From: a virus
Taxonomy: Duplodnaviria; Caudoviricetes
Virus record (IMG/VR): IMGVR_UViG_3300005805_000342
Span: 1 to 28,658 of that record
DNA: 28,658 bases
Reading direction: 5' to 3' (one strand)
Shown here: positions 3,158 to 4,766 of the stretch, piece after piece
Position numbering within the stretch: the first letter of the stretch is position 1
Layout: each line of letters opens with the position of its first letter
Notes under the pieces: model-generated
Seen by the model: only the letters and a program-made list of their open reading frames with translations
Told to the model about the DNA's origin: nothing
Databases searched by the model: none
Translations under genes and position numbers: made by a program

Positions 3158-3184
3158 AAGAAAGGGAGGTGCTAAGACCTCCCT
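3158..3184 (-). terminator. Rho-independent terminator after the lysozyme gene
   Basis: AGGGAGGT-CTTAGC-ACCTCCCT followed by TTCTT. Confidence 0.75.
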
Positions 3185-3190
3185 CATCTA

Positions 3191-3832: not shown

Positions 3833-3835
3833 TAA

Positions 3836-3915
3836 CTCCGATTGAACTCTACATCCGAATAGAAGGGGGGTACACCTAACTTCTCAGAAGGCACCTTCCT
3901 CGGCTCTAAATGGTA
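3836..3915 (-). ncRNA. candidate structured cis-regulatory RNA in the lysozyme 5' leader
   Basis: CCGA-GGAAGG...CCUUCU-AU-UCGG long stem enclosing a GCCU/AGGU helix capped by CU-GAGA-AG; GC-rich island in AT-rich context; family not identified. Confidence 0.5.
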
Positions 3916-3951
3916 ATACTCAAACTCTCATAATAAAAATTGGTATACCAA

Positions 3952-4023
3952 TGGGAACAGATAGATTTGAACTATCGACCTCTGCGTTATCAGCACATTG
4001 CTCTACCTCTGAGCTATGCTCCC
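3952..4023 (-). tRNA. trnI: tRNA-Ile(GAT)
   Basis: GGGAGCATAGCTCAGAGGTAGAGCA-ATGTG-CTGATAA-CGCAG-AGGTC-GATAGTTCAAATCTATC-TGTTCCCA; imperfect anticodon stem. Confidence 0.88.
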
Positions 4024-4026
4024 ATA

Positions 4027-4098
4027 TGGGCGATGACGGGATCGAACCGCCGACGTACACGGTGTAAACGTGCCACTCTACCGCTGAGTTAATCGCCC
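4027..4098 (-). tRNA. trnV: tRNA-Val(TAC)
   Basis: GGGCGATTAACTCAGCGGTAGAGTG-GCACG-TTTACAC-CGTGT-ACGTC-GGCGGTTCGATCCCGTC-ATCGCCCA. Confidence 0.95.
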
Positions 4099-4533
4099 GA
4101 AATGATAGTAGTCTTTGCTACCCCATATCAGTTTATTATCTATATATCCCGCATCACGGGATCTAAGTTGGTTAGGTGTAAGAATAAAGTCGGAATGAAG
4201 AATTGCACCACGAACGATACACTCCATTCCGATGTTTTTACCTTTCCATCTTCCATTATCAAGTGTAACTAAGACATCACACTTTTCATTCCGAGTACCG
4301 TCTAGTCCCCAATTCTGTATGATAATACCTGACTCTGTTTCGAATAATGTATTAAGTCTTTCTCGGTATGGTTTTTTCTCTCCTTCATAGTGATACCACT
4401 GTTTAGAAAGATACTTTCCATCACCGACAGATTCCCAAGAAGTCAGAATCCAGGCATATCTAGATGGGTTGCTATATGCTTGATCTCTGTTTGACCAGCG
4501 CCCAAGCAGGCAACTCAAGAACTCCGTAATCAT
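4078..4533 (-). CDS. cpeT: CpeT/CpcT-like phycobilin lyase (auxiliary metabolic gene)
   Basis: GRWSNRDQAYSNP, KPYRER, SRDAGY and LIWGS motifs typical of T-type lyases; 3' end overlaps tRNA-Val. Confidence 0.85.
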   Translation of the reverse strand: MITEFLSCLLGRWSNRDQAYSNPSRYAWILTSWESVGDGKYLSKQWYHYEGEKKPYRERLNTLFETESGIIIQNWGLDGTRNEKCDVLVTLDNGRWKGKNIGMECIVRGAILHSDFILTPNQLRSRDAGYIDNKLIWGSKDYYHFGRLTQR

Positions 4534-4557
4534 AACACAAAAACTTCAAGGTGTCAA
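4529..4557 (-). promoter_or_regulatory. sigma70-type promoter overlapping the cpeT start codon
   Basis: TTGACA (4557-4552), 17 nt, TATGAT (4534-4529) with TGn extension; the -10 box contains the cpeT ATG. Confidence 0.6.
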
Positions 4558-4766
4558 ACGTCGTATTTCTTACACTCTGCGGCATCTGGATTAGCATCAC
4601 AATATAATTCTAATGGTGTTGGATCCCGATCATCTTCGGGATGATTTACTTTATATGCCTGCAATGCATCCAACTCACTCTCAGTATGTCTTCTTGCCTG
4701 AGGAGAAGTGGTTGGATCATCTAAAATTTTCCTATCATGCTCAATATGCTTATCAATATTTTCCAT
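4554..4766 (-). CDS. cp12: CP12 Calvin-cycle inhibitor (phage type)
   Basis: C-terminal PTPLELYCDANPDAAECKKYD CP12 motif; N-terminus SPQARRH typical of cyanophage CP12. Confidence 0.93.
   Translation of the reverse strand: MENIDKHIEHDRKILDDPTTSPQARRHTESELDALQAYKVNHPEDDRDPTPLELYCDANPDAAECKKYDV

Follow-up and report, generated by a model that had tools for sequence, protein, structure and literature searches.

Leader RNAs and hydrolase control in phages

T4-like cyanophages carry several structured, covarying 5' leader RNAs, e.g., wcaG (RF01761), manA (RF01745) and PhotoRC-II (RF01717), which have no known ligand (PMC2864571). In T4, lysozyme is restrained at the level of translation (PMC3014915). 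The leader of its gene e, which resembles the RNA described below in placing RNA structure in the initiation region of a hydrolase and in the early and late promoters expected for it, hides the SD and AUG in a helix inside which the late promoters start (PMC3014915); S-PM2 and Syn9 are listed without an apparent gene e (PMC3014915). The operators of T4 RegA offer another likeness, an A/U-rich site beside the AUG, and are described as having no clear structure or conserved sequence (PMC3014915); regA is a core gene of cyanomyoviruses (PMC2984593). Finally, a survey of viral RNAs (Fremin 2023) includes two RNAs of aquatic Caudovirales that lie no more than 25 bp from DPBB_1 genes, compared here by their table rows only: DNAVirus_8392 (106 nt, 152 sequences, freshwater more than marine, some Synechococcus hosts, 10 DPBB_1) and DNAVirus_786 (74 nt, 35 sequences, 24 DPBB_1) (PMC10690425).

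How and when T4-like cyanophages open their hosts is unclear, and the leader RNA analyzed here bears on this question. A likeness outside phages is the c-di-AMP (ydaO) riboswitch, which is found before cell-wall genes and is likewise a leader RNA preceding wall-remodelling enzymes.

The leader and its neighbourhood

The element lies in a 28,658-nt stretch of DNA (the window; IMG/VR record IMGVR_UViG_3300005805_000342) from a T4-like cyanophage, where a gp5-like baseplate gene, cpeT, CP12 and tRNAs surround it. The RNA is on the minus strand, 3931-3841, between tRNA-Ile and a gene for a PF18013 lysozyme-fold protein (Table 1). It matches none of the wcaG, manA and PhotoRC-II models, being instead one irregular arm with an invariant foot before wall-hydrolase genes; of the three, wcaG and PhotoRC-II are present at other places of the same loci. 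Unlike gene e, it has no late promoter inside its 5' arm, with TAAATA upstream of the whole element, and no family-wide helix over the start region; unlike the RegA sites, it has both a clear structure and a conserved sequence; and, compared with ydaO, it has a far smaller core and no Rfam match.

The earlier note, made from the window's sequence, had supposed an orphan RNA, and the searches bear this out: Rfam 15 at E values up to 10 gave no match, its sole listing being a lncRNA at E 8.9, and the leaders of relatives matched no family (19 loci at E up to 1, 10 loci at E up to 5). The leader is a new RNA family, undescribed in Rfam, of the same class as wcaG, manA and PhotoRC-II, with an unusual fidelity to wall hydrolases. 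We found no published description of it in the open-access literature searched: Table 4 of the S-CREM1 paper gives four other RNAs, none at the leader site (PMC9964418), the Fremin 2023 files searched hold no match to PF18013 (PMC10690425), and PMC12873609 holds none to rlpA or phage. Prior detection as DNAVirus_8392 or DNAVirus_786 is plausible, judging by the table rows; DNAVirus_8392 fits in length, habitat and host.

Table 1. Features of the leader and its neighbours in the window, in the direction of transcription
Feature	Position	Strand	Basis or remark
Sigma70-like promoter candidate TTGACA-17-TATGAT, before cpeT	4529..4557	-	motif scan
tRNA-Val(TAC)	4027..4098	-	upstream neighbour, outside the leader family
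tRNA-Ile(GAT)	3951..4024	-	end lies 44 nt upstream of the leader's 5' GAG
AUGAG-N4-UGA block, long form only	3920..3931	-	among 178: ATGAG 144, ATTAG 17, ATGTG 1, none 16
Invariant core, 5' half, G(A/U)G	3904..3906	-	sequence conservation
P1, 5' strand, CCGA	3900..3903	-	covariation
P2, 5' strand, GGAAGGUG	3892..3899	-	covariation alignment
P3 hairpin, GAGA (GNRA) loop at 3885-3882, long form only	3875..3891	-	alignment
Bulge between P3 and P2, 6-8 nt, three sequence subtypes, each with both downstream genes	3869..3874	-	
P2, 3' strand, CCCCUUCU	3861..3868	-	covariation alignment
P1, 3' strand, UCGG, preceded by AU bulge (3860-3859)	3855..3858	-	covariation
Invariant core, 3' half, AUG(Y)(H)GA(R)UUC(W)(W)U	3841..3854	-	start codon 11 nt past the end of UUC
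Spacer to the start codon, GGAG in the window; 93-94% A/U in the family	3833..3840	-	
PF18013 lysozyme-fold protein, 213 aa	3191..3832	-	hydrophobic N-terminus
Terminator-like hairpin, between hydrolase and gp5-like baseplate gene	3162..3185	-	consensus scan only

The PF18013 protein has weak similarity to phi29 morphogenesis protein 1 (3csr; E 0.0016), and its export is predicted from hydropathy only. The two tRNAs occupy the place that upstream promoter motifs usually take in the family, and the candidate promoter at 4557-4529 may give rise to a cpeT-tRNA-tRNA-leader-hydrolase transcript. Genes for a Phd-like antitoxin (130-390), a CpeT-like protein (4078-4533) and CP12 (4554-4766) lie close to the leader site in the window.

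From its foot the fold runs through P1 (4 bp), the AU bulge, P2, a bulge of 6-8 nt and P3 with a GNRA loop. Much of this had been drawn in the earlier note: the paired segments CCGA (3903-3900)/UCGG (3858-3855) and GGAAGG (3899-3894)/CCUUCU (3866-3861) are present on the minus strand, and the region is GC-enriched, with 55% in 3855-3903 and 41.5% over 3833-3938 against 37.7% in the whole window. Of the inner GCCU/AGGU helix that it proposed, the GAGA loop stands, but G3892 pairs with C3868 rather than with the U of AGGU, a column pair that is GC in 86 aligned leaders, CG in 2 and UA in 1. The C-run, described in that note as unpaired, takes part in pairing to some extent, and other subtypes have GCGC or UCUC in its place. 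The twin UAGAG noted on both sides of the stem exists in the window but is a subtype feature that the short form of the leader does not retain, and the proposed SD, GGAG at 3839-3836, is just 3 nt from the AUG and recurs in only 11/178 long and 0/37 short leaders. Folded singly, the sequence shows no stability signal relative to shuffles on either strand (z = +0.20 for 3833-3938, -1.02 for the core); since this single sequence is no more stable than shuffles, the reality of the fold rests on homologues.

Homologues and covariation

A search with the protein only returned 595 viral loci; among the best 80 of these 595, 78 had enough upstream DNA to be scored, and NGGAUGU(A/C)GA(G/A)UUC stands at the same offset in all 78. 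An alignment of 89 distinct leaders supports 13 base pairs, with 98.4% of 1144 cells paired and 9/13 pairs changed on both sides; its covariation score was reached by 0/500 shuffles, and slid controls were 47-65% paired. On a tree built without the tested columns, the 10 variable pairs account for 121 compensatory steps, compared with a null mean of 7 and maximum of 24 over 2000 re-pairings, an absolute count that is inflated because the tree rests on about 100 columns. P1 also covaries across long and short forms together (4/4 pairs, 98% of 100 cells). The presence of G-U pairs and a GNRA loop argues for the mRNA strand. The element is a real, conserved, covarying RNA leader: covariation in homologues, whose lack the earlier note had named as grounds for dropping the idea, was found in P1-P3.

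Invariant core and reducible arm

Pattern scans revealed a short form in which only a small hairpin or a 6-nt loop is left of P2 and P3; S-RIM8 and RB11-B carry it too. It lacks the AUGAG-N4-UGA block, and its minimal representatives, L370 (where the inner arm is the 6-nt loop) and L563, retain only ~5 bp. The GNRA arm is dispensable, and the GAGA arm, C-run, twin UAGAG and GGAG are not family-wide. Both forms keep G(A/U)G, P1 and AUG(Y)(H)GA(R)UUC(W)(W)U, after which the sequence is rich in A/U as far as the start codon; in pattern-found loci the invariance of the core is partly built in by the search patterns. The junction bases, unpaired or weakly paired, are invariant in both forms, and the GG of P1 changes with compensation, to U-A, in RB11-B and L352. 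The last 10 nt before the start codon are 93-94% A/U across the family, with no conserved SD. Among 35 viral matches to a pattern that makes no demand for a start codon, the start codon follows UUC by 11 nt in 34 and by 10 nt in one.

Two readings of the core were tried and rejected. The CsrA/RsmA consensus is an invariant unpaired GGA; here, the GG is paired in P1 and undergoes compensated changes (RB11-B, L352). The core AUG has no common frame that would make it an upstream ORF: it meets a stop (AUG-UAG) in most long forms, is in frame in most short forms and out of frame in others.

The AUGAG-N4-UGA block (3920-3931 in the window) can be read as a frame of three codons in most long leaders. 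Variants have ATT or ATG-TGA, and the block may be a motif at the sequence level and not encode a peptide. Some short forms (L340, L342, L370, L563 and relatives) have an upstream frame, ...GRYYRKDYFE..., that enters or crosses the leader, with its stop codon either within the leader or a little ahead of the hydrolase start. Because this frame runs into or through the leader, ribosomes arriving from upstream would unfold it in those short forms. Some of the loci L001-L080 have an additional GC-rich hairpin, in many cases with a U-run after it, 30-60 nt before the leader, where it separates the promoter motifs from the AUGAG block; it may stabilise the 5' end or act as an attenuator.

Downstream genes and distribution

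Searches gave 294 raw instances, 287 of which were kept (a long or cut reading frame) and 218 of which are distinct. A PF18013 lysozyme follows in 186 and a PF03330 RlpA (DPBB_1) transglycosylase in 24; the other eight are five cut fragments and three chance matches. A later viral scan gave 121 matches, with 70 before a hydrolase (57 lysozyme and 13 RlpA instances, partly overlapping the earlier set), two cut leaders and 49 chance matches. No third downstream gene family appeared among the 218 distinct instances or the 121 matches of the later scan.

All three bulge subtypes occur with both genes (lysozyme/RlpA counts of 92/6, 35/10 and 20/3), so leader and gene have been re-paired more than once. 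The leader precedes RlpA in S-PM2, S-CREM1 and S-CRM01 and lysozyme in S-SRM01, DSL-LC02, DSL-LC03 and S-RIM8; S-CREM1 has the same arrangement as the window (CP12, tRNA-Val, leader, hydrolase, gp5) with the other enzyme. That the leader remains in position while the gene swaps between unrelated wall hydrolases, both predicted to be exported, identifies the two as occupants of a single functional slot. Five complete genomes have one strong copy each; weak second model matches in S-PM2 and DSL-LC02 (E 0.03 and 0.25) are not the leader. Within this set, PF18013 has no match in S-CREM1 and matches S-PM2 only within a 1173-aa frame, and PF03330 has no match in the other three. The exclusion is not strict, as DSL-LC03 has a leader-bearing lysozyme and a separate, leaderless RlpA. 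Beyond the family, the leader is absent at 9/11 more distant named lysozyme homologues, at 4/6 other phage RlpA genes and genome-wide in S-RIM2, Syn33 and ACG-2014f; the distant lysozymes and other RlpA genes without a leader imply that the hydrolase gene does not need one.

A hydrophobic N-terminus is present in every downstream protein scored (147/147 long-form lysozymes, 36/36 short-form lysozymes, 24/24 RlpA). By a crude pattern, a lipobox-like cysteine occurs in 27/36 short-form lysozymes, 15/24 RlpA proteins and 0/147 long-form lysozymes, which may point to two export routes under one leader. A lytic role of either enzyme is presumed from family membership only.

Real leaders made up ~35 of 120 sampled matches out of an estimated 4600, which extrapolates to roughly 1,300 IMG/VR stretches. 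Host cyanobacterial genomes gave 0/151 with model R1 and 0/151 with R3, at 25-34 candidates scored per genome. A loose pattern had matches in 29/401 host genomes, compared with ~16 matches, counted by eye, for a reversed control; among 30 such host loci none had a P1 of 4 bp with a start codon at the right distance, and the 3' core was found in 0/30 host rlpA loci. Another pattern, too loose to be informative, was run on one of 64 parts of a genome-contig set and gave at least 120 loci; among 120 of them, three fit a tighter pattern and none was a leader.

The rlpA leader of S-CBWM1, a phage outside Kyanoviridae, has a look-alike (L813:270-335) with GUG-CCGC/GCGG-AUGUUG, a GAAA-capped hairpin and a different 3' end, seen by eye and not scored by model R3.

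Promoters and transcription

Motifs of both early and late type lie upstream of the leader. TAAATA occurs within 130 nt in 168/176 long and 12/36 short leaders, and a sigma70-like motif in 148/176 and 21/36; coding DNA, a weak control, gave 1/164 and 3/35 for the former and 0/164 and 0/35 for the latter. In the 168 long leaders, TAAATA is 27-84 nt upstream of G(A/U)G, and because it precedes the core, early and late transcripts would both hold the whole element. Paired early and late promoters are described for S-PM2 and Syn9, with NATAAATA as the late promoter (PMC2984593). In RNA libraries, small-share contigs of relatives span the leader and the gene start; they carry no information on ends, strand or level and possibly derive from DNA.

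Proposed mode of action

Some post-transcriptional role in cis is highly probable, and control would act at translation. Our preferred reading, which we hold tentatively, is that the leader is a translational operator: transcribed from the early- and late-type promoter motifs upstream, it would present the small invariant core flanking the base of P1 to a protein, whose binding would delay synthesis of the exported wall-cutting enzyme to a later stage of infection. The extent of the 30S footprint is well established, and its upstream edge would overlap the core, at -22 to -12. An exported hydrolase that reaches the wall without a holin would need restraint, as T4 lysozyme does (PMC3014915). 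Together with the small core and the dispensable arm, these two points lead us to prefer a protein-bound operator. A bare stem with ~12 invariant flanking bases, whose arm can be reduced to a 6-nt loop, resembles a protein operator, and a bound protein appears more likely than a riboswitch. The leader would offer a small, mutable handle on hydrolase control in the cultured phages S-PM2, S-CREM1, S-CRM01, S-SRM01 and S-RIM8.

Base pairing of the start region itself varies between forms. No helix holding it was found family-wide; a duplex of -5 kcal/mol or better does so in 86/147 long lysozyme leaders, 2/36 short ones and 1/24 RlpA leaders. Pairing of the core with codons 4-6 was rejected: it reaches -8.1 kcal/mol in the window and a mean of -5.7 in the GUAGAG subtype (n = 94) and is not strong in short or RlpA leaders.

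The earlier note had suggested an orphan riboswitch or translational switch timing a lytic enzyme. Its orphan part holds, as the leader covaries, lacks an Rfam family, sits at a fixed spacing and is kept across unrelated hydrolases; the switch part fares worse, with no covariation-backed alternative fold, a dispensable GNRA arm and no conservation of the SD it proposed. Such a riboswitch would recognise a small molecule (a second messenger, wall metabolite or ion) at its G(A/U)G / AUG(Y)(H)GA(R)UUC junction, UUC toggling between pairing with G(A/U)G and a GGAU-loop-RUUC hairpin to alter ribosome access. The invariant junction nucleotides of long and short forms could form a pocket, the downstream genes share one function, and the two mutually exclusive UUC pairings are sequence-compatible in 99-100% of cells; yet neither pairing has a single both-sides change, and the G(A/U)G:UUC helix contains a U-U mismatch in 19/37 short leaders. 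A riboswitch would also have no conserved SD or terminator as its target, matches no Rfam riboswitch and has no counterpart in the host genomes searched. Among cyanophages, glutamine riboswitches and orphan motifs do occur (PMC5473149, PMC2864571), but known riboswitch classes are rare in phages (PMC5473149, PMC9004378). We regard as rather unlikely both a riboswitch in general and a phage-only class that would use its compact junction to sense a second messenger or wall metabolite of the host, timing to host state an exported hydrolase that is possibly the holin-independent lysin of cyanophages. If a ligand exists, the leader would be one of very few phage riboswitches.

The A/U-rich, SD-less approach to the start codon, the fixed spacing, the optional extra 5' hairpin of many long leaders and the hydrophobic N-termini of all scored products would suit a constitutive element, one that enhances translation of an SD-less message for an exported protein, stabilises that message or helps to target it. 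One would expect to see a general enhancer in front of other genes, whereas the leader occurs once per genome and only before wall hydrolases, and its strict base invariance exceeds the needs of a stabilising hairpin; such a constitutive role is unlikely.

Cleavage at the foot of P1 by a host or phage ribonuclease, activating or inactivating the hydrolase message, strikes us as quite improbable. The minimal forms, with their ~5 bp, are too short for RNase III, although the long form offers a long irregular helix with asymmetric loops beside an A/U-rich start region. In T4, RegB cuts at GGAG/U in initiation regions and thereby inactivates messages (PMC3014915); in the leader, the GG forms pairs of P1, with compensated changes in RB11-B and L352.

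The sequence UUCAAU resembles a T-loop and the window's leader is 44 nt past tRNA-Ile, but readings as a tRNA trailer, degenerate tRNA, terminator or DNA promoter element are largely refuted and carry very little probability: a tRNA lies within 250 nt upstream in 4/206 instances, 43-47 nt away; there is no tRNA call, Rfam match or cloverleaf, a cloverleaf or a position directly at the tRNA 3' end being what marks a tRNA or a tRNA-trailer ribozyme; the degenerate tRNA or simple terminator that the earlier note had itself raised as a threat was not found, no GC-rich hairpin with a U-run lying within the element; and the promoter motifs are separate and upstream of an RNA whose G-U pairs and GNRA loop point to the mRNA strand.

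A different upstream element

A different conserved non-coding element lies 40-150 nt upstream of the lysozyme start in six loci (L323, L324, L327, L331, L333 and L368) and has no Rfam match; it is carried by S-RIM2, S-RIM8, Syn33, S-MbCM6 and Syn2. It comprises TAAATA, AUAUCGUCGUCGC, a GAGGGG/CCCCUC-type stem around UAACUGGC..AUCCAGUUGAC and a U-run; possible readings are a late small RNA and a terminator that overlaps a promoter.
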